Assembly (NCBI GenBank): GCA_028865345.1
Contig: JAGWKL010000001.1
Coordinates: 157,489 to 221,488, forward strand
Reading direction: 5' to 3'
Length of the DNA: 64,000 bases
Origin: Candidatus Omnitrophota bacterium
Lineage (GTDB): Bacteria > Omnitrophota > Gorgyraeia > Zapsychrales > Fredricksoniimonadaceae
Shown one piece after another: positions 1 through 18,353 of the stretch. Position 1 is the first letter of the stretch; every line of letters starts with the position of its first letter. The translations under genes were made by a program, and so were the position numbers. The notes beneath the pieces were generated by a model, which had not been told where the DNA came from, searched no databases, and saw nothing but the letters and a program-made list of their open reading frames with translations.

Positions 1-940
1 GCCAATAGGCCGCCTGGCCCAACCCTAATCCCAACGCGATGATCCCCATATTCTCGACGCTGGAATACGCCAGCATCCTGCTGAAATCCTTCTGCCTTAA
101 TATAAAAACAGCGGCGACACCCAGAGACAGCACGCCCATGACCATGAGGATGGGCTCTATAAAGGAAGAAAGGTCGGCTCTGTTGCATATCTGGACCACT
201 CTTAAGATAGCCAGGATCGGGCATGCTGTCAAGGCGCCGGAAAGCAACCCTCCGATAGGGGCCGGGGACTGGGCATACGCATCAGGCTTCCAGGTATGCA
301 TAGGGGCCAAACCCATCTTGGTCCCGTAGCCGACAAGCAGGAATATAACACTCAACTTCAACCACGACGGCGTCAATACAGATGCGTGATTGAGAAGATC
401 ATTCAAAAACACGGTCTTAAAGTTGCCTGATGAAATAGCCAGCATAATGGTCCCCAAAAGGGCCAAAGCAATTCCTACCGAGCAGATCAAAACATATTTC
501 CAGGCAGCTTCCGTGTTCTGAGGACTGCGCTCAAAACTGATCAAAGGCGCACTCATCAGGGTTGTCGCCTCCAGGGCGACCCACAGCAACCCCATATGGG
601 CACTGACTGAAACCAGCGTCATGCTGGACAGTAAAAGCAGCAAGCATCCTGTAAAAATCCGGTTGCAAGCTCTTTCATTTTTCAAATAGCCCCACAGGTA
701 AACTGATACCGCGGCAAAAAGGATGCTGATGACAGTTAAAATCAGCTTGCCCAAAACATCCAACCCCAAAAATACCGGGCCGCTGCCGTTGTCCGGCATG
801 CCGCCGCTCCACAAGCCCAGCACTGCTGCCAAATGGATCGAGGCAACGCCTATCAGGAGAATCTTTCGAAGGCTGTTCTTAGGCAACACAAAAGCCAGCA
901 AGCCCCCTGAAAACGGCAGTAGGATCAGAAACAAAAGCAT
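1..940 (-). CDS. Hyf/Nuo antiporter-like membrane subunit (HyfF/NuoN/NuoM-like), 3'-partial and running off the window edge; this ORF is not in the supplied ORF track
   Basis: Manual reverse-complement translation from the ATG at 940-938. That ATG lies 2 nt after the TGA of the upstream gene. The frame reads MLLFLILLPFSGGLLAFVLPKNSL... and is polytopic and hydrophobic. It contains GTKMGLAPMHTWKPDAYAQSPAPIGGLLSG, which resembles the W/LPDA motif of NuoL/M/N. It ends ...AYSSVENMGIIALGLGLGQ, mirroring AYHSIENIGIIALGLGIG in the 659-aa neighbour. I saw no in-frame stop down to position 1. Confidence 0.55.
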   Translation of the reverse strand, partial: MLLFLILLPFSGGLLAFVLPKNSLRKILLIGVASIHLAAVLGLWSGGMPDNGSGPVFLGLDVLGKLILTVISILFAAVSVYLWGYLKNERACNRIFTGCLLLLLSSMTLVSVSAHMGLLWVALEATTLMSAPLISFERSPQNTEAAWKYVLICSVGIALALLGTIMLAISSGNFKTVFLNDLLNHASVLTPSWLKLSVIFLLVGYGTKMGLAPMHTWKPDAYAQSPAPIGGLLSGALTACPILAILRVVQICNRADLSSFIEPILMVMGVLSLGVAAVFILRQKDFSRMLAYSSVENMGIIALGLGLGQAAYW

Positions 941-942
941 TA

Positions 943-1581
943 TCAGTCCCTCAACGTTGTTAAATTAAGCGTATTGGTATCTTCGTAATCCTCGGTGATA
1001 TTATTGATCACGATGGACATCACCAGCACCGCCACAAAAATGTCCAATAATATCCCCATTTCGATCAAAAAAGGTGTTTTATCCAACAGCAACATGGAGA
1101 AAAGAAAAATACCATTCTCCATGACCAGATAACCGATGACCTGGGTAATGGCCTTGACCCTGCTGACCAACAGGAGCAATCCAATGGCAAAAATAGAGAA
1201 TGCCGCCGGTATAAATAAACGGGAAAAATACCGGTCAGGCAGCGTCAGCTTGGATGATATATAAAACGCCATCCCCACCAAAATACCGCCTAAAAGCATG
1301 GTCTTGCCGTATCCCAAAATCGTCGGGGCTTCCCGGCGCAGGCGCACGTGGCGGATGGCCCAGAATAAAAAGTTCGGCATCACAAAAACCTTCACGATCA
1401 AAGTCCCAAAGGCAATTGTCAGGACATGCCAATTAAGGCCGGCCCTGTCTACTTGCAAAGGGATGCTGCTTAGAACAAGAGATTGAAAAGCAAAAAGCTG
1501 GATGATGGTCCCTATACGGCTGCTGCCTAAAAGGACGATCCCTGAAAGAATGATGACAATTAAACTGATGTCCAGCCACAT
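943..1581 (-). CDS. small polytopic membrane subunit of a Hyf-type hydrogenase / complex-I-like module (HyfE-like, 212 aa)
   Basis: Fully hydrophobic 212-aa product of about 6 TM helices. Its size and its position between a NuoH-like and a NuoN-like gene match hyfE in the hyfBCDEF order. It is tightly coupled to the flanking genes. Confidence 0.5.
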   Translation of the reverse strand: MWLDISLIVIILSGIVLLGSSRIGTIIQLFAFQSLVLSSIPLQVDRAGLNWHVLTIAFGTLIVKVFVMPNFLFWAIRHVRLRREAPTILGYGKTMLLGGILVGMAFYISSKLTLPDRYFSRLFIPAAFSIFAIGLLLLVSRVKAITQVIGYLVMENGIFLFSMLLLDKTPFLIEMGILLDIFVAVLVMSIVINNITEDYEDTNTLNLTTLRD

Positions 1582-1582
1582 A

Positions 1583-2497
1583 TCAAGCGCCCTTTAATAA
1601 AATAACAATGAAACCCAGCGTGGCTAAAACAAAGGCCCCTATCAACAGATGCGGGACGCGGTTGAGGCGCAGACGTGCCATGACGGACTCAACCACACCG
1701 ATGGTAATACCAAGAACGCCCATCCCACAAAGAAAAAAAGTGACACCCGTCAAAGGAGATAAATGCGCGGGAACGAACAAACTGACCAAAACACTGCCCA
1801 AAACAAAGAGTTTGATATAACTTCCCCAAAGGATGAGCCCCAGATCATAGCCGCTGTGATCCAGGACCATGACTTCATGGATCATGGTCAATTCCAGATG
1901 GGTATTGGGGTCGTCGATCGGTATACGGGAATTCTCGACCAGCATGACCAGAAAGAAACTGACGGCGACCAGCACCAGCACCGGGCCCATGGAGAGCCAG
2001 GAAGAGAAAAATCCGGTATTCAGCATGTTGCATAAAACCAGGCTCTTGGAAACCATAACCAGCAGGATAAAATCCATGAAAAGGACAATTTCCGACAAGC
2101 AGGAAAAAGCCGCCTCACGGCTGGCGCCCATGCCCTCAAAACTTGATCCTGTATCCAGCGCTCCGATGATCAAAAAAAACCGCATCAATCCATAAAGGTA
2201 AATAAAAAGAAGCGCATCCCCCCAGAAATAAACAGGCGGAGCGATGCTGCCCCAAGGGACAAAAATACAGGAAGCCAGGGCTGTGGCCATAACTACCACA
2301 GGGGTAAGTTTAAAGACCCAGGACGTGGTCGTACTATAAACAACCCCCTTGCGAAAAAGTTTCGCAATATCGTACCATGGCTGCAACAGGGGCGGCCCCC
2401 ACCTGCCGGCAAAAAACGCCTTGGTTTTTCCGATCACTCCTAACAATAACGGAGAAAGGGCCAAAACAAATAATATATGGGAAAAAATGGGGAGCAT
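1583..2497 (-). CDS. NuoH/HyfC/HycD/EchB-family membrane subunit (304 aa)
   Basis: Size and hydrophobicity profile of respiratory complex-I subunit 1 / formate-hydrogenlyase subunit 4. The N-terminus MLPIFSHILFVLALSPLLLGVIGKTKAFFAGRWGPPLLQPWYD is typical. There is a 1-nt gap to the next gene. Confidence 0.7.
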   Translation of the reverse strand: MLPIFSHILFVLALSPLLLGVIGKTKAFFAGRWGPPLLQPWYDIAKLFRKGVVYSTTTSWVFKLTPVVVMATALASCIFVPWGSIAPPVYFWGDALLFIYLYGLMRFFLIIGALDTGSSFEGMGASREAAFSCLSEIVLFMDFILLVMVSKSLVLCNMLNTGFFSSWLSMGPVLVLVAVSFFLVMLVENSRIPIDDPNTHLELTMIHEVMVLDHSGYDLGLILWGSYIKLFVLGSVLVSLFVPAHLSPLTGVTFFLCGMGVLGITIGVVESVMARLRLNRVPHLLIGAFVLATLGFIVILLKGA

Positions 2498-2503
2498 GTC
2501 TTT

Positions 2504-4483
2504 TTAGGTCACCTTCCAGATCAAAATGAGAAACAGAAAAATAAAAATATAAAGCACATATATCTGTGCATAGCCGCACTGGATGCTTTTCATCCGGCCG
2601 CAAACTTCCTGCATCAGACGGTATATCCTGCGCCAAAAAAAATGTTCCGAGGCATCTATGACCTCCGAGGCCACAAGCACCTTTTCAGGAAAAATTTGTT
2701 GGGGGCGTGCCTTCGCGCGGCGCAAACACAGGACCTCGCGGAAGAGTTCCACGATGGGGCTGGCAAATGAAGAGGCCGTATATTGCATACGCGGCGAGGC
2801 GGCGGCATAGCCGCACCCCCATGTCCCGGATTTTGCCACTGACATATTTTTCATGGCCATCCTTCTAAATAAAACCAGAAAAATGGATATCCCGATAAGC
2901 ACAAACAAACTGAGGACCATCCATTGAACGGGACGTAAAATATTTGCCATGTCCGCGGTATTGGTTGCTGTCGGCAAAATACGCATGGCCCCTTGCAGGC
3001 AAAAAGACACCATCGTCTGGGGAAAAATCCCGATCCAAACGCAAACGCCGGCGAGAACGGCCATAGGGGCAATCATTGGGGCGGAATTCTCTTTCAAATC
3101 CGCCGCATGCTGTGACCTTGCCTGCCCCAAAAAGACCGTGCCGAAAGCTTTGGTAAAACACATGAGCGCCAGTCCCCCGATGAGCGCCAGGGCGATGATC
3201 GCAAGCCCTATTAAAATGACCGGCTCCATCGGAAAGCTGAAAACACCTTCAAAAAGGGCCCGGTATACCAGCCATTCGCTGATAAAACCATTGAAAAGAG
3301 GCAGGCCGCATATCGCCAAAGACCCTATTAAGAACAGCGCACCGGTCCAGGGCAGATACTTTAACAACCCGCCCAAATGGTCAATTTCTCCGGTATGCGT
3401 CTGCCGGATGACAGAGCCGGCGCTTAAAAAAAGCAGTCCTTTAAACATGGCGTGATTAAAAACATGTAAAAGGGCCCCGGCATAACCGATGACGGCGATG
3501 GTATGGTATTGGTTCAATTGCCCCCAAAGACCTATCCCCAACCCCAGGGCGATGATCCCGATATTTTCAATGCTGTGGTAGGCCAATAATTTCTTGATTT
3601 CGTGCTGGCCCAGGGCGTACAAAACACCCCCGACACCGGAGACGATGCCGATGGCCGTGAGCACCGCCGGACACCATGGGGGGAAATGCTTGACCATCAT
3701 GATCAAGCGGATGATGCCATAAATACCCATCTTGATCATCACCCCTGAAAGGACAGCGGAGACATGGCTGGGCGCCGCCGGATGGGCATGCGGCAGCCAG
3801 ATATGCAGGGGAATAAACCCGGCCTTGACCCCGAAACCGATCGTCCCTAAAACAAAAACAACGCCTGCCAGCATCAAGGGGAATTGGGCCGCTGACATCC
3901 GGCCAAAATCCATGGACCCGGCCTGGGTCCCCAAAAGAATGAACATCACCCATAAACACAATGTCCCTATATGGGCGGCGATCAAATAAAGCAACCCCGC
4001 TTGCCTTACCTCTTCATTGCCGTCATGATAAGTGATAAGGAAATATGAGGAAACCGACATGCCTTCCCATGCCAGTAAAAAAAGGACGGCGTTCCGGGCG
4101 GTGACGACCAGCATGAGGGACATCAAAAAAACAAGATACAAACAAAAATGGCCGGCAATGTCCTGTTGATGTTCCCCATTCCTTAAATAGCCGATTCCAT
4201 AAACTCCCGCCAGAAAACACAGCAGTGTGACGGCCAGCAAAAATAAGGCGCTGACAAAATCGATGCCGATTGTAACCTCTCCCCAGGGCAATGACCAAGG
4301 CAGCCGGTCGACAAAACTTTCCTGCCTGATGAGGGTATCCACCGCACTGATAAAAGCAGATCCGCAACCCAACGTCAAAAATACAAGAAATACATTTTCT
4401 GCCCAACGTGGCTTATGCCTTAATAAAGCAAGACAGAGAATGCCTGCGGATAAAAGGGCCAAACTGACGGAAAAAAGGATCAT
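2504..4483 (-). CDS. NuoL/HyfB/MrpA-family proton-translocating membrane subunit (659 aa)
   Basis: Large polytopic protein with the antiporter-like core, including ...FIPLHIWLPHAHPAAPSHVSAVLSGVMIKMGIYG... and AYHSIENIGIIALGLG. Its start overlaps the upstream gene in an ATGA arrangement. Confidence 0.7.
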   Translation of the reverse strand: MILFSVSLALLSAGILCLALLRHKPRWAENVFLVFLTLGCGSAFISAVDTLIRQESFVDRLPWSLPWGEVTIGIDFVSALFLLAVTLLCFLAGVYGIGYLRNGEHQQDIAGHFCLYLVFLMSLMLVVTARNAVLFLLAWEGMSVSSYFLITYHDGNEEVRQAGLLYLIAAHIGTLCLWVMFILLGTQAGSMDFGRMSAAQFPLMLAGVVFVLGTIGFGVKAGFIPLHIWLPHAHPAAPSHVSAVLSGVMIKMGIYGIIRLIMMVKHFPPWCPAVLTAIGIVSGVGGVLYALGQHEIKKLLAYHSIENIGIIALGLGIGLWGQLNQYHTIAVIGYAGALLHVFNHAMFKGLLFLSAGSVIRQTHTGEIDHLGGLLKYLPWTGALFLIGSLAICGLPLFNGFISEWLVYRALFEGVFSFPMEPVILIGLAIIALALIGGLALMCFTKAFGTVFLGQARSQHAADLKENSAPMIAPMAVLAGVCVWIGIFPQTMVSFCLQGAMRILPTATNTADMANILRPVQWMVLSLFVLIGISIFLVLFRRMAMKNMSVAKSGTWGCGYAAASPRMQYTASSFASPIVELFREVLCLRRAKARPQQIFPEKVLVASEVIDASEHFFWRRIYRLMQEVCGRMKSIQCGYAQIYVLYIFIFLFLILIWKVT

Positions 4484-5181
4484 GAACTGCTCTTCTCCTT
4501 GGGCCTGTCAGCTAACTTGGACTCCAGGATCCTGATTTCCCCCAATATCTGTTCCGGCGTAGATTTTTGCTGGAGGGATTGCCGCAAAGAACTGTTTTGT
4601 AAACAAAACGCCAGCCTGGCCAGAAGGGAAAGATGCTCTTTGACCGACGAGCTTAACAGCCCGAAAACTATCGAAACCGGATTCCCGTCCAGCGCCTTGA
4701 AATCAACCGGCCCCTTAAGGAAACACAGGGCGACCGCAGACTCCTGGACCTGTACGACCACGGGATTGCGCACATGCGGGATGGCGATCCCGCCGCCGAT
4801 GGCAGTAGACATCAATTCTTCGCGTCGCAACAACAGGCCGCACATCTCTTCCTTATTGATCTTGGCCGGCATAGGAAGGCGGTCCACCAAAGCCTGCAGC
4901 GCCTCTGTCCTGTTGGCGCCGGGAACATCATAGTGAATGCCTCCGTTCTTCAACGCATGATACAAGGTGCCGGGATGGCCGTTCTCTTTTTCCCCCAAAG
5001 CCAATATCTCAGCCGTCAGGTTGATTTTGTGGCCCAAGGTCCATTCCAGAAGTTCTATATAATTAAAATGGTATTGCCCATTAACCTTAACGCAGGGCAT
5101 TTTGTCCCTGGCAATCCATCGGTGGATGGTCGGCTCGGAGACATGAAGGATCTCCACGATATCACGCAGCGATATTTGCAT
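4480..5181 (-). CDS. fusion of an excisionase/MerR-like HTH DNA-binding domain with a PTS EIIA type-2 (PtsN / EIIA-Ntr-like) domain
   Basis: The N-terminus MQISLRDIVEILHVSEPTIHRWIARDKMPCVKVNGQYHF is an HTH_17-type motif. The C-terminal domain carries the EIIA-2 phospho-histidine signature GGGIAIPHVRN. An AGGAAG SD sits 5 nt upstream. The stop overlaps the start of the hyfB-like gene. Confidence 0.7.
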   Translation of the reverse strand: MQISLRDIVEILHVSEPTIHRWIARDKMPCVKVNGQYHFNYIELLEWTLGHKINLTAEILALGEKENGHPGTLYHALKNGGIHYDVPGANRTEALQALVDRLPMPAKINKEEMCGLLLRREELMSTAIGGGIAIPHVRNPVVVQVQESAVALCFLKGPVDFKALDGNPVSIVFGLLSSSVKEHLSLLARLAFCLQNSSLRQSLQQKSTPEQILGEIRILESKLADRPKEKSSS

Positions 5182-5377
5182 ATTTCTTCCTAAATGTTGG
5201 ATGGGTTGGTTGTCTTCTGGCCGGCTAAAGGTAGGCAGATGCGGTCATTACTTTGTGTTCCTCAATTCTATATTCCCCTATATGCGAATATAAGCATATA
5301 TTAACTCGCTTTGGGGACCCTGTCAAGAAAATGGAGGGCCATTGCCTGCCCCAGATTCGGGAGCGAAGCGCCCTTTT

Positions 5378-5704
5378 TTACTCTTTCCCGAGGGTCTTGA
5401 GCATTTTTTCTGAAGCCTTGAATTTTTTGCGCAGCATCACGGCGATGGGGCGTAAAACGTTGAAAATATCATGGTCCGCGATATCGTAGTAAACCGTGGT
5501 CTTTTCCTGGCGGGAGGTCAAAATCCCCGCATGGCGCAGGGCCAAAAGATGGCGGGAGGTGCTCGACTGGCCTATCTTGAATTTGCCGACAAGATCCCCG
5601 ACGCTCTTTTCCCCTGTTTTAAGCTCTTCGATCAGCTTCAGGCGGACCGGATGCCCCAACACTTTCAGGAAATCCGCCTTGATCTTATACACCATGTCCT
5701 GCAT
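5378..5704 (-). CDS. ArsR/SmtB-family transcriptional regulator
   Basis: 108 aa with the HTH region VGDLVGKFKIGQSSTSRHLLALRHAGIL, which is typical of ArsR. The start overlaps the 3' end of glgB by about 20 nt. Confidence 0.8.
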   Translation of the reverse strand: MQDMVYKIKADFLKVLGHPVRLKLIEELKTGEKSVGDLVGKFKIGQSSTSRHLLALRHAGILTSRQEKTTVYYDIADHDIFNVLRPIAVMLRKKFKASEKMLKTLGKE

Positions 5705-7679
5705 CGGGATCTTCTTTCACAGGTTCTTGAAGAAGCTGCAAAGCTTGTGCAGGGTCCGGATCGGGCACCGCAGGGCCTTTTAAAAATAAAACGCCCAAAG
5801 GCGGGATCGTCAACGGCAGCGAAAATGGCTTGCCGTGCATGGGTTTTTTCTGGGCATCGACACCGCCGCCGTTACCCTGGCCGCTGCCGCCGTAAGGCTT
5901 GGCATCCGAGTTCAACACTTCCAGCCAATGCCCTGCCTGCGGCACGCCGATACTGTAATTTTTAAGCGTCTGGGGCGTAAAATTGCATACGGCGAGGATG
6001 CGGGATTTTCCGTCGGCGGACTTGCGGATAAAACTGATGATGCTGTTATTGTAATCGCTGAAATCGACGTATTCAAACCCTTCCGGAGAAAAGTCCCTTT
6101 CATACAAGGCCGGCTCCTGACGGTAAAAACGGTTCAGGTCCTTGACCCATTGCTGGATGCCCTGGTGCGGGGCGTATTGAAGCAGGTGCCATTCAATGCT
6201 GTGCTCATATCTCCATTCAGCCCATTGGGCGAATTCCGATCCCATAAAATGGAGTTTCTTGCCCGGGTGCGCGAACATATACCCGAAAAGCAGGCGCAGG
6301 TTGGCCAATTTCTGCCACTGGTCCCCGGGCATTTTACCCGCCAAAGCTCCTTTGCCATGGGTGACCTCATCGTGAGAAAGGGACAGCAAAAAATTCTCGG
6401 AAAAAGCGTATAAAAATGAAAACGTCAAATCATTATGATGGTATTTGCGGTAAATGGGGTCCTTGCACATGTACACCAAGGTGTCGTGCATCCAACCCAT
6501 GTTCCATTTCATACCGAAGCCTAAACCCCCCACGAAGGTGGGGCGCGACACCCCGCCCCAGGCCGTCGACTCCTCTGCGATCATCTGCGTGTCGGGGAAA
6601 TTACCGTAGATCATTTCATTGAGCCTGCGCAGGAAAAAAATGGCTTCCAGGTTCTCCCGGCCGCCGTACTCATTGGGCACCCAGGCGTTCCCCCGGGAAT
6701 AATCCAGATATAACATGGAAGCAACGCCGTCGACACGCAAGCCGTCCGCGTGGTACTTGTCCATCCAGATCATGGCTGAAGAAATCAAAAATTCCCTGAC
6801 CTCATTGCGGCCGTAATTAAAAATCGCACTTTTCCAGTCGGGATGATAGCCTTTCCTGGTATCCGCATGCTCATACAGGTGCGTGCCGTCAAAATAGACC
6901 AGCCCATGCTCGTCGGTGGGGAAATGCGACGGCACCCAGTCCAGGATGACGCCAATACCCCGCTGGTGAAGGCAGTCCACCAGGTACATGAAATCCTGCG
7001 GCGTGCCGAAACGGCTGGTGGGGGAGAAATAGCCCAGGGTCTGGTATCCCCAGGAGCCGTCAAAAGGATGTTCCATGACCGGACAAAACTCGACATGGGT
7101 ATAGCCCATGTATTCCAAATAATCAGGCAGCTGTGCTGCCATCTCCCTGTAGGTCAACGGGCGCAGATTTTCTTCCACCACCCTTTTCCAGGAAGCCATA
7201 TGCAGCTCATAAATGGACATCGGCGCTTCCAAACTGTTCTGGCGATGCCGCTCTTTCATCCATTGCGTGTCCTTCCATTCATAATCATGGTCCCAGACAA
7301 TGGAGCCGAAATGGGGGGCCACTTCATTATAAAAAGCAAAAGGATCCGATTTTTCCACCTGATAATTCCGGGCATTGGAGACGATAAAATATTTATAGAC
7401 CTCGCCGCGGGCCAAGCCCGGAATGAAGCCTTCCCAAATGCCTGAAGAATCCAAACGGCGTTTTAAAGGGTGCGTGTGCCGTTGCCACTGGTTAAAATTG
7501 CCGACCACGGAGACGCTTTTAGCATTAGGCGCCCACACGGCAAAGTGCACGCCGGTCTTGCCGTCGACAACCGCAAGGTGCGCTCCTAACTTGTCGTAAA
7601 GCCTGAAATGGTTGCCTTCTTTAAATAAATAAACGTCGTGGTCCGTAATGAAAGATTCCGTCAATGGCTCTGTTTCCAT
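5685..7679 (-). CDS. glgB: 1,4-alpha-glucan branching enzyme (GH13)
   Basis: 664 aa with an N-terminal CBM48-like region (VHFAVWAPNAKSVSVVGNFNQW). It has GH13 catalytic motifs (GIGVILDWVPSHF, HADGLRVDGVASMLYLDY, EESTAWGGV, FMGSEFAQ). Confidence 0.9.
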   Translation of the reverse strand: METEPLTESFITDHDVYLFKEGNHFRLYDKLGAHLAVVDGKTGVHFAVWAPNAKSVSVVGNFNQWQRHTHPLKRRLDSSGIWEGFIPGLARGEVYKYFIVSNARNYQVEKSDPFAFYNEVAPHFGSIVWDHDYEWKDTQWMKERHRQNSLEAPMSIYELHMASWKRVVEENLRPLTYREMAAQLPDYLEYMGYTHVEFCPVMEHPFDGSWGYQTLGYFSPTSRFGTPQDFMYLVDCLHQRGIGVILDWVPSHFPTDEHGLVYFDGTHLYEHADTRKGYHPDWKSAIFNYGRNEVREFLISSAMIWMDKYHADGLRVDGVASMLYLDYSRGNAWVPNEYGGRENLEAIFFLRRLNEMIYGNFPDTQMIAEESTAWGGVSRPTFVGGLGFGMKWNMGWMHDTLVYMCKDPIYRKYHHNDLTFSFLYAFSENFLLSLSHDEVTHGKGALAGKMPGDQWQKLANLRLLFGYMFAHPGKKLHFMGSEFAQWAEWRYEHSIEWHLLQYAPHQGIQQWVKDLNRFYRQEPALYERDFSPEGFEYVDFSDYNNSIISFIRKSADGKSRILAVCNFTPQTLKNYSIGVPQAGHWLEVLNSDAKPYGGSGQGNGGGVDAQKKPMHGKPFSLPLTIPPLGVLFLKGPAVPDPDPAQALQLLQEPVKEDPDAGHGV

Positions 7680-9331
7680 ATTTCTCCGTATTGTTTAATC
7701 CAGTCTTCCTTGGCCCATTCATAACCCACATCACGGCCGGCTTTCTCGCTTTCATACCATTTGTGTTTTTCGATTTCCTGAACGACTTGAGGATCGTTGC
7801 ACAGGTCCTTGCTCAAACGATTTTGTGCCTGCGGCGCCATCGCGGGCTCTTTTTTACGCTCGAATGAAGACACATGCGGCTGAGAAGAGGTAAACGTTTT
7901 TCCTTTTCCAATGATCTCCATGCCCCGGCGGCAGAGCTCCTTGGCATAATCCGTCCATATCCCCTGGCCCCAATAACGGAAACAGCTCGTTTGGGACAAC
8001 AGAACATACAACAAGGCTTCTCGATAGGCCCTTGAATTTTTGTCGGCATCTTTTTGGTCGAACTTTTCATGGAACGCCGCGCTTAAATGGTTGATGGGAT
8101 CAAGCACGTCACTGTAGCCCTTGACCCAATTACGGTCATTGGTCCATGAGCCTTTATCAAGGTTGAACGAATGGTCTTGGGCCTGGAGTTGCGTGATGGC
8201 TTTATTGACAGCCTCCGGCTCGAATTTCTTGATCTTCTCCCAAATGCGGTGCTGGGAAATAGGCTGCAGGGGCGCATAGGCGCCGGGATTTAACCCCGAA
8301 TCCTCCAGAAATTCCAGGTATTCCGACCCGTTCAAAGCGACCGTGCCCTCTGTGGAAAGGCCCTGGATGCACTGCATGTACATGGGCGGAAACTCATTCA
8401 TCATGACCCCGCCGTTCTCACCGTCACCGATCTGGACGACAAAAGGCGGGACTTCTTTACCGCAATACTCCCGTCTGGACAATCCCCGCGCCTCAGGCAA
8501 CGGTTGCATCTGGGCCACCAGCTTGGTGTCGGAGCCCTGCGTCTTGATAAGACAGGTGATTTCCTGGGTCTCTCCCATCGAATTCTTGGCAACCAGTTTA
8601 TGCGGCAGATGAGGATTGCTGATCCCGCGGCCGTTGAGGTCTTCGACGGTGTGCTCCTGCACCATGAGCCACTCGTACCCGCACTCTTTCAAAGCTTTGA
8701 CATACTCATAGCAGACATCCGGATGGATGGGCAAATGCATCTCAGGCGCGGAAAATCCTTTGATGCGCTCTTCGGCTTCCTTGCCGAAAATGGAGGCAAA
8801 ATGCCGGCGGAAAGCCATCATATGCAGTTTGATGTCCGGTACCGGCGTCGAAGTGACGACGGAATGCGACCACATGGTCCCCATCCATTCCACATAAGGC
8901 CAATAGGTCTTGTCGCAAGTAATCCTCTTTAAATTCTCCAGTGCTTGGCCTCCATTGATCTGCCGCAGCCCCCAGAGCAGGTTGCCGGAATAATCCAGCA
9001 TGATACGGGGACTTTTGCCTGCGGCCACCAACTCCGGTATAAACCGGGACATGCGCTGATAACAGTCAAAAAACACGCCGGCATTATAATTGTCGCCGAT
9101 CCCCTGGTTCTCAAACATGTACTGAAGATTGGAAATCAGGCCGGCACGGTACAGGTCCCCTCCGCCCGCCGGAATCGTCGGCTGGTGCATATGTAAGGCG
9201 ATGCCGAACGCAGACCTGACTTTCTTAAAATCAATATTGGAACAGTTGCTGTACAGTTTTCTTTTTTTAGGAAGGACCGCTGCGCCGGTCTGAGAAAAAA
9301 TATTAGGTAAATTGTCGATGATGTCGTTCAT
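7661..9331 (-). CDS. GH57-family alpha-glucan-active enzyme (amylase / 4-alpha-glucanotransferase-like)
   Basis: 556 aa. The N-terminal GH57 signature HMHQP (...FGIALHMHQPTIPAGG...) is present. Its size and context are consistent with the GH57 family. Confidence 0.7.
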   Translation of the reverse strand: MNDIIDNLPNIFSQTGAAVLPKKRKLYSNCSNIDFKKVRSAFGIALHMHQPTIPAGGGDLYRAGLISNLQYMFENQGIGDNYNAGVFFDCYQRMSRFIPELVAAGKSPRIMLDYSGNLLWGLRQINGGQALENLKRITCDKTYWPYVEWMGTMWSHSVVTSTPVPDIKLHMMAFRRHFASIFGKEAEERIKGFSAPEMHLPIHPDVCYEYVKALKECGYEWLMVQEHTVEDLNGRGISNPHLPHKLVAKNSMGETQEITCLIKTQGSDTKLVAQMQPLPEARGLSRREYCGKEVPPFVVQIGDGENGGVMMNEFPPMYMQCIQGLSTEGTVALNGSEYLEFLEDSGLNPGAYAPLQPISQHRIWEKIKKFEPEAVNKAITQLQAQDHSFNLDKGSWTNDRNWVKGYSDVLDPINHLSAAFHEKFDQKDADKNSRAYREALLYVLLSQTSCFRYWGQGIWTDYAKELCRRGMEIIGKGKTFTSSQPHVSSFERKKEPAMAPQAQNRLSKDLCNDPQVVQEIEKHKWYESEKAGRDVGYEWAKEDWIKQYGEIWKQSH

Positions 9332-9334
9332 CGT

Positions 9335-11029
9335 CTACCTCCTTGTCTTCAAAAGTCTTTTGAGAGGCCCGGCTTTTTTCAAAGGCGTTTGTGCCTGATG
9401 ATCATCGAGATAATATTTGACGCAATTCATGTCCCCGAAAATATTGTCCCTGGATTCAACCTCTTTAAGCCAGGACTCGTTGATAGAATCCTCTTTTAAA
9501 TCATTGCATAACCTGTAAAACCGGTGCAGGTGCGTCTTGATCCTTTTTTCCGCGTAAGCCACGACGGTTTGTGCCTTCATGATAAACGGCCAGTCGCTGG
9601 CTTCCGCCAGAAGAAGTTCGCGCGCGGCCTGATTAAGGGCGCGGTAACGAAGAGCGGATTTGAGAGGTTTGCGGCCGAAATGGCCCCGGATCAAACCGGC
9701 ATTTTCCGATGCCACCTCTTTCATAAGCCTTCCGGCATCATGTAAATAAGGATATATCCAATCGTTGCAGTCTTCAAGCCAAAACTCGCTGAAGCCCTTA
9801 TACCCCCAACTCGAAAAGCCGGGCATGGCCACCTGATTGGTGGAATACTCTTTCAAATATTGCGACGGGGTCGCCATCTCAATGGTGTCCTGGTCATAAA
9901 AAATCTTCCGGGCCAGAAAGTCGATCCATTGAGGCCCCTCAAACCACCAATGACCGAATAATTCCGCGTCGTAGGGGGCCACGACGATCGGCTTGCGGCC
10001 CATCCTGGAAAAATAATGTTCGATCTGTTTCTGGCGGTTAAACATAAAGTTCCCGGCGTGAACAGCGGCCTTGTCGGCGGCCCTTTGCGGATTGTACGGA
10101 GCTTTTTCTTCCGTATCGCCGGTGATCCGCCAATACTTGATGCCGGTGTTGACACGGATGCCGTCGGGGTGGACATAGGGTTTGATATATTCAAAATCCA
10201 GCGCAAAGCCGATATCACGGTAATATTCCCGGTAGTCAGGATCGCCGGGATATCCCTCCTTGGCGCTCCAGACCTGCTTGGAACTTTCCCAGTCCCGCCC
10301 GAACGCGGCCACCCCGCTGGGGCAATAAACAGGGGCAAAAACACCGAACTGCGGCTGCGGGTCCGCGTTCATTATGCCGTGGGAATCGCAAAAGAAATAC
10401 GTGATGCCGGCTTCTTTTAACAGGCGATCCAGCCCCGGGTAAAAGCCGCATTCCGCAAGCCACATCCCTTTGGGGGCGACCCCGAAACAACGTCGGTATT
10501 GATCGATGCCGACGGCGATCTGGGCCTTGACAGATGACTCGTTGATGTTCAAATTGGGCAAAAAACCATGGGTGGCGCAGGAAGCAATGATCTCCAGGCA
10601 GCCGGCCTCCTGGAATTTCTTGAAAGCGTTAATGAGATTTTTATGGTAGCGGTTCACGAAGATGTCCCGGGCCTCGACAAACCGGTTGTAATACATAAGC
10701 GCGAGGCCCCGGAATTGCGGGTCATACGCTGTACGGTCCGACTCTTTAGCCGCCAGCTCAATAAGTTTATTGATGTGGCGCACGTAGCGTCCCTGCAGTA
10801 ACGGATCCATGAACATGGCCAACAGGGTCGGGCTGATCGACATGGTCAGGCGGAAATCGACCTCATCGCGCACAAGCAGCTCAAAGACCCGTAGTAAGGG
10901 GATATAGGTTTCGGTAATGGCCTCGAACAGCCAGTTCTCCTCCAGGAAATAATTTTCCTCCGGGTGGCGGACAAACGGCAGATGGGCATGAAGGACAAGG
11001 CTCAAATAGCCCCGGGGTTTTTTATTCAT
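9335..11029 (-). CDS. GH57-family glycogen branching enzyme (Thermus/Thermococcus GBE type)
   Basis: 564 aa. LVLHAHLPFVRHPE, TYIPLLRVFE, APYDAELFGHWWFEG and ELLLAEASDWPF align along the full length with what I recall of GH57 branching enzymes. I cannot verify that recollection. Confidence 0.8.
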   Translation of the reverse strand: MNKKPRGYLSLVLHAHLPFVRHPEENYFLEENWLFEAITETYIPLLRVFELLVRDEVDFRLTMSISPTLLAMFMDPLLQGRYVRHINKLIELAAKESDRTAYDPQFRGLALMYYNRFVEARDIFVNRYHKNLINAFKKFQEAGCLEIIASCATHGFLPNLNINESSVKAQIAVGIDQYRRCFGVAPKGMWLAECGFYPGLDRLLKEAGITYFFCDSHGIMNADPQPQFGVFAPVYCPSGVAAFGRDWESSKQVWSAKEGYPGDPDYREYYRDIGFALDFEYIKPYVHPDGIRVNTGIKYWRITGDTEEKAPYNPQRAADKAAVHAGNFMFNRQKQIEHYFSRMGRKPIVVAPYDAELFGHWWFEGPQWIDFLARKIFYDQDTIEMATPSQYLKEYSTNQVAMPGFSSWGYKGFSEFWLEDCNDWIYPYLHDAGRLMKEVASENAGLIRGHFGRKPLKSALRYRALNQAARELLLAEASDWPFIMKAQTVVAYAEKRIKTHLHRFYRLCNDLKEDSINESWLKEVESRDNIFGDMNCVKYYLDDHQAQTPLKKAGPLKRLLKTRR

Positions 11030-12111
11030 AGGATGTTTTTAAGTATTTTGGGAAAATAAACTGTTTTCTCCCGTTCGACACGCGTGTTGATATGCCGCTG
11101 TTCAACTCCATCCGATGATTGGGCGACAAATTTCAAAGGGACCTCGCCGTCAGGCAGCGCATACCGCAGGGAAAATGTCCCGTCCGGGTTTAATTTGATC
11201 CCTTGCTGGTTGAGCCAGACAGCGGCATCAGGTTCCGTCCTGCCATGCACAATCAATTCCGTGGCAATTTCAAAGAAAAACTTCCTTTTATTCAAACGGC
11301 CTTCGCTGCCCTGGAGCCCAAGGAATTTTTCACTGGCGCCCTGTTTTTCCGTCAGGGTCCTCTCTGAAGCGCCGGGATGGGTGCGCCGGATCAATTCGAT
11401 ACAGGTGACCAGAGGCAGGACCTTTTGCCACGGTATGCCGGCCGGTATCCCTTTGACAAGACCCGCCAGCGAAGTCCTGGGGACACCTCTTCGCCCTTTT
11501 GACTTGCTATGAAATAATTTTAAATAATAGGCGCGGATGTCGTGGGCGGTCAGGTGATAGATCCTCGGGTACTTAACGCCTTTGACCCGGCGGCCCTTTC
11601 CCGACGGCCCCTGCGTTAAAACCTGCTGAAATTCACCGGCCTGCCCCTGCATCAAACCTCGGCCGGGGTCTTCTTTGATGTCTTCCTGAATGTAGGGTTG
11701 GGATTCCCTGGACAATTTGATGTCCTGCCATATCAGGTCGTTTCTCTTCGAGGCGGTCTTGGCAGGGGTTTGCACCGTATTGGAACGCGTCAGGGCCGTA
11801 AAATGATTTTTGCCGCCGGCCACCCCCACTTCAACGCAATAACCGGCGTTGTCCTGCCCGACATTAATGTAAGCATCTTTAGTGGTCGGCCCCACTTCGA
11901 TGTCCCGCGCGGGGCTCACAGTCGAATGGACACGGAGGACGAACTTCAGGTCCTTTGTTTTCGATTTAAACTGTTGGTGCAACCGCTCCATGTCCTTGGG
12001 CGAATAATCCCAATACGCGTAAATGACATTGGGGTCGCGCGGCATAAGGACGCAGCGGGTACGCTGGCTTAAGGTCGGAAGCTCGGTTGAGTCAATTACA
12101 GACGGCGGCAT
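11026..12111 (-). CDS. conserved hypothetical protein, possibly a DUF4912-like protein often adjacent to GH57 genes
   Basis: 361 aa, soluble. The N-terminus ...DPNVIYAYWDYSPKDMERLHQQ... resembles DUF4912. It overlaps the start of the downstream GH57 gene by 4 nt, which suggests translational coupling. The family call is from memory only. Confidence 0.35.
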   Translation of the reverse strand: MPPSVIDSTELPTLSQRTRCVLMPRDPNVIYAYWDYSPKDMERLHQQFKSKTKDLKFVLRVHSTVSPARDIEVGPTTKDAYINVGQDNAGYCVEVGVAGGKNHFTALTRSNTVQTPAKTASKRNDLIWQDIKLSRESQPYIQEDIKEDPGRGLMQGQAGEFQQVLTQGPSGKGRRVKGVKYPRIYHLTAHDIRAYYLKLFHSKSKGRRGVPRTSLAGLVKGIPAGIPWQKVLPLVTCIELIRRTHPGASERTLTEKQGASEKFLGLQGSEGRLNKRKFFFEIATELIVHGRTEPDAAVWLNQQGIKLNPDGTFSLRYALPDGEVPLKFVAQSSDGVEQRHINTRVEREKTVYFPKILKNIL

Positions 12112-12122
12112 AAAGATACCCG

Positions 12123-13310
12123 TTATTGGTAAACATGCAAGGTTTCATCGGCAATAACATCCCAGGAAAAGGCCGTTTCCACCGTCAGGCGGCCGTTATG
12201 CCCCATCCAGCGGGCATGATCAAAATCATTAAAAAGGGTCCCGATGCCCCAGGCAATGGATTGGGGATTGTCCTGTATTTTGAGGCCGTTGACATCATGC
12301 CAGATGATTTCATTTGGGCCGCCGTTGACGGTGGCCACCACCGGCTTGCCGGCGCTCCAGGCTTCCAAAATGACAATGCCGAAGGGCTCATTGCGGCTGG
12401 GCACGCACACGCAGTCCGTGGATTTAAAAAGATCCCTTAAAGCCTCAGGGCTTTGCTTGCCTAAAAACCGGGTGGCATGGGCCACGCCCATCCTGGCGGC
12501 CTGGCCCTCTGTCTCGGCGCGCATCTCCCCGTCGCCTGCAAAGACAAACTTGGCGTTGGCATAATAATGTAAAATGTAAGGTATGGCGGAGACAAGCAGG
12601 TCCGGGCCTTTTTGATAAACCATGCGCCCGACGATGAGCACCATCGGGTCTAGGGGGCCAATGCCGTACTGGCGCTTGACGTCCCCGCAATCGATCCAGC
12701 TGTCAAAATCCGAGCAGCGGATGCCGTTATAAACAACATCCGTTTTGTCTTCGGGAATGTTATAGATCCACGTCACCTCATTTTTCAAGGCATTGGACAC
12801 GGTAATAACGCGGTCGCTGGAGTAGGATCCCCTCCATTCCAGGTGCCGGACACGCCTGGAATTGCCTTCAAAGAAATTATTTCCGCAGCGGCCGTACTCG
12901 GTTGAATGGATGGTAAAAACGGTCTTGTGGCGCCTGGCCTTATTGATCCATTCCAGGGCCAAGGCCGTCAGCCAGTCATGCCCATGGATCACGTCAAAAT
13001 GACCGATGTAATTTTCCGTGGCCAGAAAGGCATCCGTAAAAGAACGGCACATGTTAGCGACTTCTTCTATGAAATCAGGATGGGGGGAAAACGGGCAACG
13101 GTGATAATGAACGCCATGGATGCATTCGTACTGAGGATGGTCTTGGCGCGCCATGCGCGTAAATATATGAACCTCATGGCCTTTGCGCTCTAAGGCACAG
13201 GCAAGCTCCGTGACATGCAAACCGATGCCACCGACAAATACCGAGTGAACAGCCTCCCAGGAAAACAACCCGATCCTCATATCTAACCCTTTGTTACTAA
13301 AAGAGTTCAA
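12123..13310 (-). CDS. GT4 (GT-B fold) glycosyltransferase, likely the alpha-glucan / glycogen synthase of the cluster
   Basis: 395 aa. The N-terminal GT4 signature is RIGLFSWEAVHSVFVGGIGLHVTELACALERKGHEVHIFT. The C-terminal retaining-GT motif is ...NEPFGIVILEAWSAGKPVVAT... . Confidence 0.75.
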   Translation of the reverse strand: MNSFSNKGLDMRIGLFSWEAVHSVFVGGIGLHVTELACALERKGHEVHIFTRMARQDHPQYECIHGVHYHRCPFSPHPDFIEEVANMCRSFTDAFLATENYIGHFDVIHGHDWLTALALEWINKARRHKTVFTIHSTEYGRCGNNFFEGNSRRVRHLEWRGSYSSDRVITVSNALKNEVTWIYNIPEDKTDVVYNGIRCSDFDSWIDCGDVKRQYGIGPLDPMVLIVGRMVYQKGPDLLVSAIPYILHYYANAKFVFAGDGEMRAETEGQAARMGVAHATRFLGKQSPEALRDLFKSTDCVCVPSRNEPFGIVILEAWSAGKPVVATVNGGPNEIIWHDVNGLKIQDNPQSIAWGIGTLFNDFDHARWMGHNGRLTVETAFSWDVIADETLHVYQ

Positions 13311-13399
13311 GGGAAAATGATTATATCAAATCTTATTAATATTACAATTTATTTTAAGGACGGGGCCCCAGTCTGGGGACAGGCAGCGGGAAAATCCTA

Positions 13400-14542
13400 T
13401 TATTGCCAGAGCACGGAGTCAAAGCCAAGAGTGCCTGTGCATAAAATCCTGGCGATCCCTATGGAGGTAATGGCTAAAAACACTACAAAAGCTGCCTGAA
13501 GGACCGCTCCCAACCTTTTATTAAAACCTTTCAGACGCTCTATGGCCATCACTGCCAGCATCAACAGCACAGGGCAAAAGAACAACGAAGTCCGGGGGCA
13601 AACAAAGGGATATTTATGTATAGCCCCGAATATCAAATGCAGCCAAAATACGGCAAAAGCGGCCGGAACAACCGATTTAAATTCAAATCCATCCTTTTTA
13701 AACCTGCCCCAAAAAGCGGCCAGCATGTATACCAGACCCATTCCCATAAAAAGCCGGGACGGGCCCCTCATCCAATGGGGCCTTTCGGCAAACCAACGGG
13801 AGATCAAATTATTCAAATTTTTCCCTAAACTGCCGAAAAAGGCCCTCGGGGAATCAAAAGAAATAAAATAATCGTGCCAATAAACACTCAGATTATTTCT
13901 GGTAACGCTGACGTCAAAACAATAAAACACCAAAAGGGCCGATACGGCAACGCACGTATAAAGGACCAGCGGCCGCCATTGCCCTGTCCTCTTGCCGCAC
14001 AACCATAAATTCCATAAAAATAAAGGTATCCAGAACACGGATGGGTAGGAAACAAAACAAAGAAACGGCAGGACGTACCACCAGCGGCTTAAACCCCGGT
14101 ACAAACACCATAAACACAAGGCCGCAGCCAGGACATCCATGGAATATTGCTTTAATTCGGACGCATAATATACCAGCATGACCGATGCCGGCCAGCACAG
14201 GATATAAAGGCCAAGAGCGGCGCGGTCTTTGAATTCCCTGGAGGCAATGCCAAGCCACACCCCGAAAGCCGTCACCATGCAGGCAAAGGGCAGAAACCTC
14301 AAGGCCCAAAGTTGAAAATGAAAATATCCGGAAAACCGCTGGATCATCCAAAGATAAAAACGCGGAAAGGCCTGAAGATCAAGTAATGGTTTTGAGAATA
14401 AATCAACGGTGGAATAATTTTTAATGTTAAGAAAAATGCAATATTCATCGTTCCATAAAGGGCGCCGGTTGAAATAATGGAGGGTGATGAGAAAAAGATA
14501 CCAGCCGGCCAGGGACAAGCTGACATAGCGTAAAGTTTTCAT
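13400..14542 (-). CDS. polytopic membrane protein, possibly a GT-C-fold glycosyltransferase (ArnT/PMT-like)
   Basis: 380 aa with about 10 TM helices. An acidic motif RRPLWNDEYCIF in the first predicted periplasmic loop resembles the DE / DExRY motifs of GT-C enzymes. This is a weak call. Confidence 0.35.
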   Translation of the reverse strand: MKTLRYVSLSLAGWYLFLITLHYFNRRPLWNDEYCIFLNIKNYSTVDLFSKPLLDLQAFPRFYLWMIQRFSGYFHFQLWALRFLPFACMVTAFGVWLGIASREFKDRAALGLYILCWPASVMLVYYASELKQYSMDVLAAALCLWCLYRGLSRWWYVLPFLCFVSYPSVFWIPLFLWNLWLCGKRTGQWRPLVLYTCVAVSALLVFYCFDVSVTRNNLSVYWHDYFISFDSPRAFFGSLGKNLNNLISRWFAERPHWMRGPSRLFMGMGLVYMLAAFWGRFKKDGFEFKSVVPAAFAVFWLHLIFGAIHKYPFVCPRTSLFFCPVLLMLAVMAIERLKGFNKRLGAVLQAAFVVFLAITSIGIARILCTGTLGFDSVLWQ

Positions 14543-15013: not shown

Positions 15014-15070
15014 GGGAAAGCATTATAACCTTCTCTTGCGCGTTGGCAAGCGATGATTTAATATGAGACG

Positions 15071-15964: not shown

Positions 15965-15996
15965 ACAGGGACGTCTCTCCAAAAAGGCAAAAAGAT

Positions 15997-16241: not shown

Positions 16242-16270
16242 AATATCCTCCTTGGAATGGTATGGATTTA

Positions 16271-18344: not shown

Positions 18345-18353
18345 AAAATTCCT

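Follow-up and report, generated by a model that had tools for sequence, protein, structure and literature searches.

What kind of complex is encoded by an operon that carries a hydrogenase-like or complex-I-like membrane arm and is headed by a gene for a sensor of the phosphotransferase system (PTS), and what does that leading gene do? We addressed this question in a Candidatus Omnitrophota bacterium (GCA_028865345.1, contig JAGWKL010000001.1, positions 157,489-221,488). This 64-kb stretch of DNA is referred to below as the window, and all coordinates are given within it unless stated. Domains were called by Pfam and NCBIfam scans, and the relevant features are as follows.

1-940, minus strand: EhrD, HyfF/NuoN-like subunit, cut by the window edge (NF005044 HyfF, 221 bits)
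943-1581, minus strand: EhrC, HyfE-like subunit, 212 aa (NF008556 HyfE, 96 bits; weak PF00420)
1583-2497, minus strand: EhrB, NuoH/HyfC-like subunit, 304 aa (PF00146 NADHdh, 128 bits)
2504-4483, minus strand: EhrA, HyfB/NuoL-like antiporter-type subunit, 659 aa (PF00361, 178 bits; NF005086 HyfB, 593 bits)
4480-5181, minus strand: HTH-EIIA protein, 233 aa (Pfam PF12728 HTH_17 and PF00359 PTS_EIIA_2)
5269-5300, minus strand: AT-rich operator-like element, two crossing 7-nt inverted repeats
5298-5326, minus strand: predicted sigma-70-type promoter of the ehr operon, 10 of 12 consensus matches
5335-5352, minus strand: weak terminator-like hairpin and T-run from a consensus scan, between the ArsR gene and the ehr promoter
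5378-5704, minus strand: ArsR/SmtB-family regulator, 108 aa (PF01022 HTH_5; NF033788, 73 bits against a cutoff of 55)

The window holds the 5' part of a tightly packed operon of 11 genes, which begins with HTH-EIIA, EhrA, EhrB, EhrC and EhrD and continues past position 1 with EhrL, EhrS and EhrA2-B2-C2-D2. The content beyond the edge was read from contigs L001-L003, which are 99.9% identical to the window across 11 kb. The stop of HTH-EIIA and the start of EhrA share a 4-nt ATGA overlap, and the following junctions as far as EhrD have gaps of 6, 1 and 2 nt. For EhrD, 313 of 474 codons lie within the window, and the complete protein of 474 aa is found in L001 (10642-12066). An earlier, sequence-only reading of this DNA had described 1-940 as a clear but unlisted open reading frame and as the fourth gene. 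Frame 940-2 is indeed open for all 313 codons with no in-frame stop, and the gene was absent from the tracks because the frame runs off the window edge, so that its apparent omission is an edge artefact; it is the fourth membrane gene but the fifth gene of the operon. The same reading's gene order and domains held up in the scans, as did its description of the leading gene as an HTH-EIIA(Ntr-like) fusion with an intact phospho-His, and of the membrane genes as resembling hyfB-C-E-F without hyfD (these are the best NCBIfam matches, and no HyfD was found).

Family assignment of the complex

Judged by its sequence, the locus is the front part of an Ehr (energy-converting-hydrogenase-related) operon and no Hyf hydrogenase. 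It clusters NuoL-, NuoH-, HyfE- and HyfF-like subunits with NuoD- and NuoB-like ones, and its large subunit is related to those of group 4 hydrogenases without having the NiFe-binding cysteines. The order A-B-C-D-L-S is common to 50 of 53 related loci. Ehr is a known family whose function is not yet determined; four papers credit its definition to Coppi 2005 and to Marreiros et al. 2013 (PMC13194489, PMC7894505, PMC6349859, PMC10284858), and two of them describe its large subunit as a group-4-hydrogenase relative without NiFe cysteines (PMC6349859, PMC10284858). An example is Geobacter sulfurreducens ehrA-1, B, C, D, L, S (GSU0739-0745), which has the same six subunit types in the same order, a large subunit without the CxxC NiFe motifs and a small subunit in which the cluster cysteines are retained. 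The window operon differs from it in adding a second, paralogous A-B-C-D set after EhrS, and in its lineage the NuoI-like domain described below no longer has its ferredoxin-type clusters.

The large subunit, EhrL, decides the assignment. It is NuoCD/HycE-like, and in an alignment to E. coli HycE (7Z0S_E) all four NiFe cysteines are replaced (CGIC by AGDT and DPCYSC by NLSYAG). A group 4 [NiFe] hydrogenase is recognized by the CxxC motifs L1 RxCGxCxxxH and L2 DPCxxCxxR in its large subunit, and EhrL does not carry them. Since the NiFe ligands are absent, the complex cannot be a hydrogenase. The loss extends to nearly all of 56 EhrL relatives, with a cysteine at the first L1 position in only two, and the altered site is a conserved feature in its own right: across the 56 sequences, 13 of the 15 positions of GPVHAGIIEPGHFRF never vary and the other two alternate between V and I, and AGD(T/S)xxGH is likewise conserved.

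The sequence-only reading had favoured an energy-converting hydrogenase, and a true Hyf-type (hydrogenase-4 / formate hydrogenlyase-2) [NiFe] enzyme with its catalytic subunits past the window edge does have some evidence on its side. The membrane genes are closest to HyfB, HyfE and HyfF, and the best solved-structure matches of EhrL and EhrS are HycE (E = 7e-48) and HycG (E = 2e-33) of the E. coli FHL. Against this, besides the replaced cysteines, we found no formate dehydrogenase, HycB/HyfA, separate HycB/HycF-type ferredoxin subunit or hyp genes in the 20-kb locus, and the NCBIfam Hyf equivalog cutoffs were all missed (e.g. HyfB at 593 against 667 and HyfE at 96 against 136). The cysteine motifs rule out a Hyf hydrogenase at the level of sequence, and we give this explanation practically no weight. 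What follows position 1, where HyfG/HyfI-like catalytic subunits had been anticipated, is the NiFe-less EhrL and EhrS. An Ehr-type complex had been named, beside an Mrp antiporter, as the alternative should such subunits be lacking, and the operon is of that type.

Two further candidates were rejected. An Mrp antiporter is ruled out by the NuoH-, NuoD- and NuoB-like genes, and no MrpE/F/G-type or other small membrane genes occur further in the operon. Respiratory complex I is ruled out because NuoA/J/K and NuoE/F/G/I subunits are absent from the locus; EhrL also falls below the NuoD equivalog cutoffs, and at the quinone site Tyr87 and His38 of T. thermophilus Nqo4 are replaced by Gly and Ile. 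Ehr shares with Mrp and the complex I membrane arm the PF00361 antiporter-type subunits with their TM5 Glu, TM7 Lys and TM12 Glu/Lys, but unlike Mrp it lacks MrpE/F/G, and unlike complex I it lacks NuoA, NuoE-G and the quinone-site residues. The E. coli Hyc/Hyf systems are regulated by FhlA/HyfR. They share with the window-type Ehr the HyfB/C/E/F-like membrane subunits and the EPGHFR loop (7Z0S), whereas Ehr is without the NiFe ligands, the HycB/HycF Fe-S chain, formate dehydrogenase and HyfD.

Iron-sulfur sites and the state of the complex

EhrS is a NuoB-like small subunit with a fused NuoI-like N-terminal domain. Its C108, C111, C175 and C205 align with the cluster cysteines of HycG and MbhJ, giving it the four cysteines for a proximal [4Fe-4S] cluster that characterize group 4 small subunits, and these are kept in 56 of 57 sequences, the exception having Ser at Cys205. 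The NuoI/HycF-like domain has at least 8 cysteines in most phyla; in the window lineage and a relative (L008) it is Cys-poor and has a 25-residue deletion. In the window EhrS it retains one Cys and no CxxCxxCxxxC motif, so that both ferredoxin-type clusters are lost and the NuoB-type site is the only cluster site left in the complex of this lineage. The N-terminal domain matched no NuoI or HycF family, and the best PDB hit for the window sequence, E. coli NuoI, was non-significant (E = 0.71); its NuoI-like nature therefore rests on the family alignment and on a relative, L039.

The membrane part of the complex is well preserved. EhrA has the TM5 Glu, TM7 Lys, TM8 Lys and TM12 Glu motifs, and the antiporter-type charged residues are all kept both in A-B-C-D and in A2-B2-C2-D2, which are paralogous and 46-57% identical. 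In comparison with the sister species L087, dN/dS was 0.07-0.12 in all eight genes tested, from HTH-EIIA through EhrA2 and including EhrL and EhrS. Thus, purifying selection acts on all eight tested genes of the operon.

These values bear on whether the operon is a decaying relic whose complex became non-functional in the window lineage once the Fe-S wire was gone. The loss of both ferredoxin-type clusters would fit such decay, as would the absence from this lineage's EhrL of Cys485, which is conserved elsewhere. In addition to the low dN/dS and the key charged residues retained in both membrane sets, however, four assemblies all carry intact reading frames and synteny is kept in L087, and we regard decay as very improbable. 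By homology, the Ehr complex would move ions across the membrane, and in the window lineage few if any electrons would reach it through a ferredoxin-type wire.

The HTH-EIIA protein and its association with ehr genes

The protein encoded by the leading gene has two domains joined by two linker helices: an HTH_17 domain at residues 5-47 (nt 5169-5041), which scores 36.2 bits with PF12728 where the cutoff is 27, and an EIIA-2 domain resembling PtsN at residues 79-214 (nt 4947-4540), which scores 90 bits with PF00359. In the AF2 model (pLDDT 88, pTM 0.85), residues 5-50 form a helix-helix-strand-strand-helix winged HTH, and the best Foldseek matches of the protein are PtsN. The HTH_17 domain is strongly conserved, with W22, P29, F39 and W47 invariant among homologues. 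The equivalent of the phospho-His is His136 in the motif GIAIPH (codon 4776-4774), which aligns with the PtsN active-site region and is conserved in 201 of 202 homologues.

PtsN/EIIA(Ntr) provides the closest solved structures (PDB sequence matches 2A0J, 3URR and 1A6J), and the two proteins have the EIIA-2 fold and the phospho-His motif GxAIPH in common. HTH-EIIA differs from PtsN in its N-terminal winged HTH, in being the first gene of its target operon, in length (233 aa against about 160 aa for the stand-alone protein) and in falling below the PtsN equivalog cutoffs (TIGR01419, 58.6 against 138.7; NF008145, 42.8 against 221). In MtlR, LicR and LevR, too, a single polypeptide combines a DNA-binding domain with a PTS phospho-acceptor domain. 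Compared with them, HTH-EIIA has no PRD, EIIB-like or AAA+ domains and is a minimal two-domain protein with an excisionase/MerR-type HTH_17.

The association of this gene with ehr is real and general. The HTH-EIIA gene lies beside ehr genes for 73 of 75 homologues from many phyla, directly followed by EhrA in 71 of the 75 and linked without directly preceding EhrA in the other two of the 73. All three loci that we anchored on EhrL instead also have it upstream, and it heads ehr operons in bacteria of more than 10 phyla. Cultured carriers include Fontivita pretiosa B-254 (L054) and Desulforhabdus sp. TSK (L039). The connection that the window first suggested, of a complex-I-like module with the gene of a PTS-type sensor, is far more general than it appeared there. 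The two orphan genes (L040 and L060) have unrelated neighbours and no alternative partner complex. Apart from the seven-gene cassette, no neighbouring gene is conserved that might point to a substrate; the largest additional cluster, SulP in Omnitrophota, covers five loci. The 64-kb window has no HPr, NPr or EI genes; in one relative (L022), an HPr-like ORF lies directly upstream. The searchable literature on Ehr makes no mention of the leading gene, reports no PTS link to Ehr and contains no paper naming both PtsN/EIIA and Ehr.

Operators and the regulation of the operon

Of 77 regions upstream of HTH-EIIA genes, 24 contain the pattern TGTCC-N5-TGTCC, located near -49 relative to the ATG, against a background of 6 matches in 2.38 Mb; L018 and L054 are among the loci with such a promoter. 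This operator is conserved in most phyla and covaries with the recognition-helix residues K17/Y20 (54/62 versus 3/18, raw counts in which kinship is ignored). It is absent in the window's own clade, where another element occupies the promoter. The predicted promoter reads TTGACA (5326-5321)-N17-TAATAT (5303-5298), and L087 has the same arrangement (TTGACA-N17-TATTAT). The inverted repeat TATATGC-N8-GCATATA, located by the sequence-only reading at exactly 5300-5279, overlaps the -10 and is crossed by a second one, TATATTC-N10-GAATATA, at 5292-5269. Together they form TATATGC-t-TATATTC-GCATATA-ggg-GAATATA, a series of 8-bp periodic NATATKYN half-sites spanning -10 to about +25.

Dinucleotide shuffles of the 196-nt intergenic region gave P = 0.16 for at least one such inverted repeat and P = 0.039 for at least two, so the TATATGC repeat alone is only marginally above chance. 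The 64-kb window has no second copy of the AT-rich pattern, and 2.49 Mb of sequence from other loci has none; it is the best-conserved intergenic block in the sister species, and a related element stands in the same place in L087 and L008. The repeat is probably a real operator, better read as 8-bp periodic ATAT half-sites, with HTH-EIIA or ArsR as candidate binders. A hairpin was ruled out because the two repeat pairs cross instead of nesting. The terminator-like hairpin at 5335-5352 has 5 pairs and a loop of 8, and shuffles give about as many such sites. Rfam found nothing meaningful in the 118-nt leader or in 1-6000, the single match being a vertebrate lncRNA (E = 0.36).

Operators of the ArsR/SmtB family typically cover the promoter and consist of imperfect inverted repeats rich in AT. 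The ArsR gene of the window is the last of an upstream glycogen-gene cluster, overlapping the end of glgB by 20 nt; in L087 its counterpart adjoins the ehr promoter, and in L008 it stands at the head of the cluster. There the operon runs malic enzyme-CitMHS-SulP-HTH-EIIA-ehr, and the element again lies in the promoter that comes first after ArsR, as it does in L087. Because the element stays next to ArsR even in L008, whose operon starts with malic enzyme, the repeat at 5269-5300 may belong to this upstream-encoded repressor and not to HTH-EIIA. These ArsR proteins resemble each other closely (E = 3e-55), while the recognition helix of the HTH is not the same (P/H in the window, E/N in L008). 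On the other hand, HTH-EIIA is present in all three operons, which leaves room for self-regulation, and the comparison covers three species only; we put ArsR as the binder at slightly less than an even chance.

A separate consideration is whether HTH-EIIA acts mainly as a PtsN-like partner that binds Ehr and gates ion flow according to its phosphorylation state, the HTH being secondary or serving protein contacts. PtsN is a known regulator of cation transport: in unphosphorylated form it binds and inhibits the K+/H+ antiporter YcgO (PMC11808508), and it controls the Kdp system (PMC9239096). The ATGA overlap couples HTH-EIIA translationally to EhrA, suggesting matched synthesis of the two. Such a role in the main is nonetheless unlikely in our view, given the strongly conserved HTH_17 residues and an operator that is conserved at a fixed distance from the gene, and whose covariation with the recognition helix points to DNA binding. 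The partner role and the DNA-binding role are compatible with each other.

Our preferred explanation, which we hold as a whole with somewhat better than even confidence, is that the 11-gene operon encodes an ion-moving Ehr complex with a dedicated HTH-EIIA regulator switched by phosphorylation of His136. The winged HTH would bind an operator at the operon's own promoter, and the PtsN-like EIIA domain would switch this binding when HPr or NPr phosphorylates His136; the EIIA domain possibly also contacts the complex directly. Ehr levels would thereby be tied to the PEP/PTS state of the cell. A bolder version, which we offer as speculation and consider rather doubtful, is that Ehr in this Omnitrophota lineage has turned into a redox-independent ion translocator, a complex-I scaffold whose two membrane arms are stacked or serve as alternatives, and that Ehr in more than 10 phyla is an unrecognized output of the regulatory PTS, with HTH-EIIA sensing HPr/NPr, controlling transcription and docking on the complex.

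Ehr complexes are widespread, with more than 8000 EhrL-like proteins among the matches scored in one search, and annotations routinely mislabel them as 'hydrogenase' or 'NADH-quinone oxidoreductase'; such loci should not be counted as hydrogenases in metagenomic surveys. A near-universal sensor-regulator with a recognizable operator offers the first concrete experimental handle on the conditions under which cells use Ehr, and it points to the PTS and the PEP/energy state, not to H2 or formate. The window lineage, in which the ferredoxin-type clusters are lost and strong purifying selection is retained, is a natural experiment that bears on the relation between redox-driven pumps of the complex I family and redox-independent Mrp-type antiporters. 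If the bolder version is true, Ehr would belong to PTS-governed cation or energy homeostasis and not to hydrogen metabolism.

The ehr operon and its continuation past position 1

The low-coordinate end of the window carries five minus-strand genes, and their order, Pfam and NCBIfam domains and junctions confirm the operon proposed in the sequence-only reading. From the regulator gene HTH-EIIA through EhrD, a 4-nt overlap is followed by gaps of 6, 1 and 2 nt; because the junctions overlap or nearly abut, these genes form a single operon.

Genes and promoter elements of the ehr region (window coordinates, except where contig L001 is named)
5326-5298, minus: ehr promoter TTGACA-N17-TAATAT, consensus match
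5300-5269, minus: AT-rich element, two 7-nt inverted repeats at the ehr promoter
5181-4480, minus: HTH-EIIA, 233 aa; PF12728 HTH_17 (36 bits), PF00359 PTS_EIIA_2 (90 bits)
4483-2504, minus: EhrA, 659 aa; PF00361; top NCBIfam match HyfB (593 bits)
2497-1583, minus: EhrB, 304 aa; PF00146 (NuoH family)
1581-943, minus: EhrC, 212 aa; HyfE (96 bits)
940-1, minus: EhrD, 313 open codons; HyfF (221 bits)
After EhrD in L001-L003, L001 12074-13543: EhrL, NuoC/NuoD-like, 489 aa
After EhrL in L001-L003: EhrS, NuoB-like, 227 aa
After EhrS: second membrane set, NuoL-like 661, NuoH-like 306, HyfE-like 214 and HyfF-like 473 aa
L001 19315-20639: Ppx/GppA-HD gene, 3' of the second membrane set

All Hyf matches fall under the curated NCBIfam equivalog cutoffs, and by sequence the membrane genes are hyfB-C-E-F-like, not equivalogs. 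The gene noticed earlier at 1-940 is real, its 313 codons being free of stops; it is missing from ORF lists solely because it crosses the window edge. Downstream content was read from three MAG contigs (L001-L003), found by exact-protein look-up and 99.9% identical to the window across 11 kb, with L001 position 11581 corresponding to window position 1. There, EhrD reaches 474 aa, and the second membrane set has likewise overlapping or abutting junctions. The two sets share 54, 57, 46 and 47% identity (NuoL-, NuoH-, HyfE- and HyfF-like, respectively), and because identity is only 46-57% we regard them as old paralogues. The nearest relatives of set 1 are the ehr genes of the Omnitrophota loci L007, L008 and L010; those of set 2 are the ehr genes of L013. 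A sister species (L087) has the same layout and a regulator about 75% identical. The downstream Ppx/GppA phosphatase has an HD domain. In E. coli, a link between PtsN and the control of polyphosphate has been reported (bioRxiv 10.1101/2021.10.15.464621); the tie may be coincidence.

Against L087, the window lineage gives dN/dS values of 0.07-0.12 in eight genes, the regulator plus EhrA1, B1, C1, D1, L, S and A2; dS is close to saturation, which makes these values rough. They indicate purifying selection on the ehr genes. In each membrane set, the antiporter-type charged motifs (Glu in TM5, Lys in TM7, Glu in TM12) are retained. On these two grounds, we rejected the reading of the operon as a relic.

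Remodelled large and small subunits

The sequence-only reading favored an energy-converting hydrogenase and proposed extending the contig to look for catalytic subunits or a formate dehydrogenase. Large and small subunit homologues do follow, without NiFe ligands. The top solved-structure match of EhrL is E. coli HycE (7Z0S_E, E = 7e-48), and in that alignment EhrL has SVAGDTVIGH at L1 where HycE has RVCGICGFAH, and NLSYAG at L2 where HycE has DPCYSC, so that 0/4 NiFe cysteines are kept. Where Nqo4 has the complex-I quinone residues Tyr87 and His38, EhrL has Gly and Ile. With all four NiFe cysteines replaced, and the gene content of L001-L003 lacking hyp genes, a HycB-type subunit and any formate dehydrogenase, the hydrogenase reading was rejected.

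The remodelled site is strongly conserved among 56 EhrL homologues from related loci: in GPVHAGIIEPGHFRF, 13 of 15 positions do not vary and the remaining two alternate between V and I; A-G-D-T/S-x-x-G-H is conserved; and the C-terminal motif is NLSY[C/A]GHDL. Residue 485 in this motif (NLSYCGHDL) is Cys in 49/56 proteins and Ala in seven Omnitrophota-clade sequences. In EhrS, the NuoB/HycG cluster cysteines C108, C111, C175 and C205 are kept in 56/57 homologues. Its N-terminal 100-140 residues form a NuoI/HycF-like domain, which in most phyla carries ferredoxin-type CxxCxxCxxxC motifs with at least eight Cys (in L039 it matches the HycF family, E = 4e-20). This domain has a 25-residue deletion in the window and L008 and is nearly Cys-free throughout the window's clade. 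Loss of Cys485 is thus correlated with that of the EhrS ferredoxin-type cysteines, the same clade having lost both. These alignments indicate that the window lineage's complex has lost its NiFe and ferredoxin-type cluster sites. As judged from its genes, the operon encodes an Ehr complex and fits the published definition of that family, which is without assigned function (PMC6349859, PMC10284858, PMC7894505, PMC13194489).

The HTH-EIIA regulator and its link to ehr

The EIIA domain is nearest to PtsN both by sequence (2A0J, E = 1e-13) and, in an AF2 model (pLDDT 88, pTM 0.85), by fold, with 3URR, 1A6J, 2A0J and 4GQX leading the Foldseek matches; the protein scores under PtsN equivalog cutoffs. 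The modeled N-terminus is a winged HTH (helix-helix-strand-strand-helix). His136, in GIAIPH, is present in 201 of 202 family members, and by this sequence comparison the regulator and its His are conserved. At Foldseek ranks 13-49, the EIIA model also matches the regulatory cytoplasmic domains of band 3, AE2 and NDCBE, eukaryotic anion exchangers of the SLC4 family; these matches would fit a role of the fold in capping and regulating ion transporters.

A scan with one genome per species gave 80 loci in Omnitrophota, Planctomycetota, Verrucomicrobiota, Lentisphaerota, Kiritimatiellia, Desulfobacterota, Acidobacteriota, Spirochaetota, KSB1, Fibrobacter, Binatia, Hydrogenedentota and others. Downstream sequence of 1.5 kb or more is available for 75 HTH-EIIA genes, and 71 of these have EhrA at most 400 nt away on that side. 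L055, which starts with EhrL, and L059, an ORF-calling artefact, are also ehr-linked, giving 73/75; the earlier suggestion of a PTS link to a complex-I-like module is therefore supported, and far more broadly. Only L040 and L060 are orphans. The former (3405-8301) neighbors peptidase U32, GT2 and TauE; the latter (9947-20232) neighbors an ABC-type system and an MscS-like protein, with three TGTCC sites upstream. The six-gene ehr set is complete in 50/53 loci with enough sequence, and in the reverse direction HTH-EIIA directly precedes EhrA in 3/3 EhrL-anchored loci. No other conserved neighbors of HTH-EIIA-ehr loci were found.

Several loci vary in content. In Omnitrophota, L009 (574-16375) holds two complete HTH-EIIA-EhrABCDLS operons in tandem, from different sub-lineages. 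A tandem EhrA (NuoL-like) pair follows the regulator in nine loci (L017, L041, L054, L059, L061, L065, L068, L073, L076), recalling the ehrA-1/ehrA-2 naming in Geobacter sulfurreducens. A SulP/STAS anion transporter directly precedes HTH-EIIA in several Omnitrophota (L007, L008, L010, L012), and in L008 (4770-10000) the post-ArsR operon begins with an ACT-malic enzyme, then a CitMHS-family transporter; these neighbors hint at a possible dicarboxylate or anion transport link. The only PTS partner adjoining any examined locus is an HPr/NPr-like ORF upstream of HTH-EIIA in L022 (5726-6082; E = 5e-11 to B. subtilis HPr).

Operators and proposed control

In most phyla, a TTGACA -35 box lies upstream of HTH-EIIA, with a TGTCC-N5-TGTCC direct repeat just past the -10. 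The strict repeat occurs in 24/77 upstream regions, clustered around -49 from the ATG (background, 6 matches per 2.38 Mb). TGTCC(A)-N5-TGTCC(A) is found across many phyla, no more than 150 nt upstream of the HTH-EIIA start codon (L016-L086, e.g. L018, L042, L074, L077), about 800-fold over background, and an inverted GGACA often sits between -35 and -10 of these promoters. Two or more half-sites accompany 54 of 62 regulators whose recognition helix (SEKTxYRW) carries K17/Y20, versus 3 of 18 others (Fisher's test, 4e-8, not corrected for phylogeny). The operator is thus conserved and covaries with the recognition helix, which supports self-regulation by HTH-EIIA.

The window regulator has P17/H20 and no TGTCC upstream. 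The repeat TATATGC-N8-GCATATA noticed earlier is found at exactly 5300-5279, within the AT-rich element. The two inverted repeats of the element cross instead of nesting and therefore do not make a hairpin; the element is equally readable as 8-bp periodic NATATKYN units. It is marginal against shuffles (P of at least two inverted repeats = 0.039), and occurs once in the window and nowhere in 2.49 Mb of other loci. A related element occupies the same position in L087; in L008 one lies at the post-ArsR promoter, heading malic enzyme-CitMHS-SulP-HTH-EIIA-ehr. HTH-EIIA would be one candidate binder; the product of the ArsR gene just upstream is a serious rival, given the high similarity among the ArsR proteins and the differences between the HTH helices. 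The ArsR gene overlaps the glgB end by 20 nt, and a glycogen/alpha-glucan cluster (5685-12111) lies upstream of the ehr operon on the same strand.

Genes of the glycogen cluster (window coordinates)
5685-7679, minus: GlgB-like CBM48/alpha-amylase
7661-9331, minus: 556-aa protein without Pfam match
9335-11029, minus: GH57 with BE_C domain
11026-12111, minus: DUF4912

The literature searched did not mention the HTH-EIIA-Ehr link; the founding Ehr papers (including Marreiros 2013) lay outside that search. The Ehr family is already known; the regulator link is new as far as searched, and this lineage's Fe-S-poor Ehr version with a double membrane set is also new. We propose that the Ehr complex translocates ions and that HTH-EIIA binds its own promoter, with HPr/NPr phosphorylating His136 and thereby switching DNA binding. 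Phosphorylation would perhaps also switch a direct contact of HTH-EIIA with the complex, in the way that PtsN acts on the K+/H+ antiporter YcgO (PMC11808508) and the Kdp system (PMC9239096).
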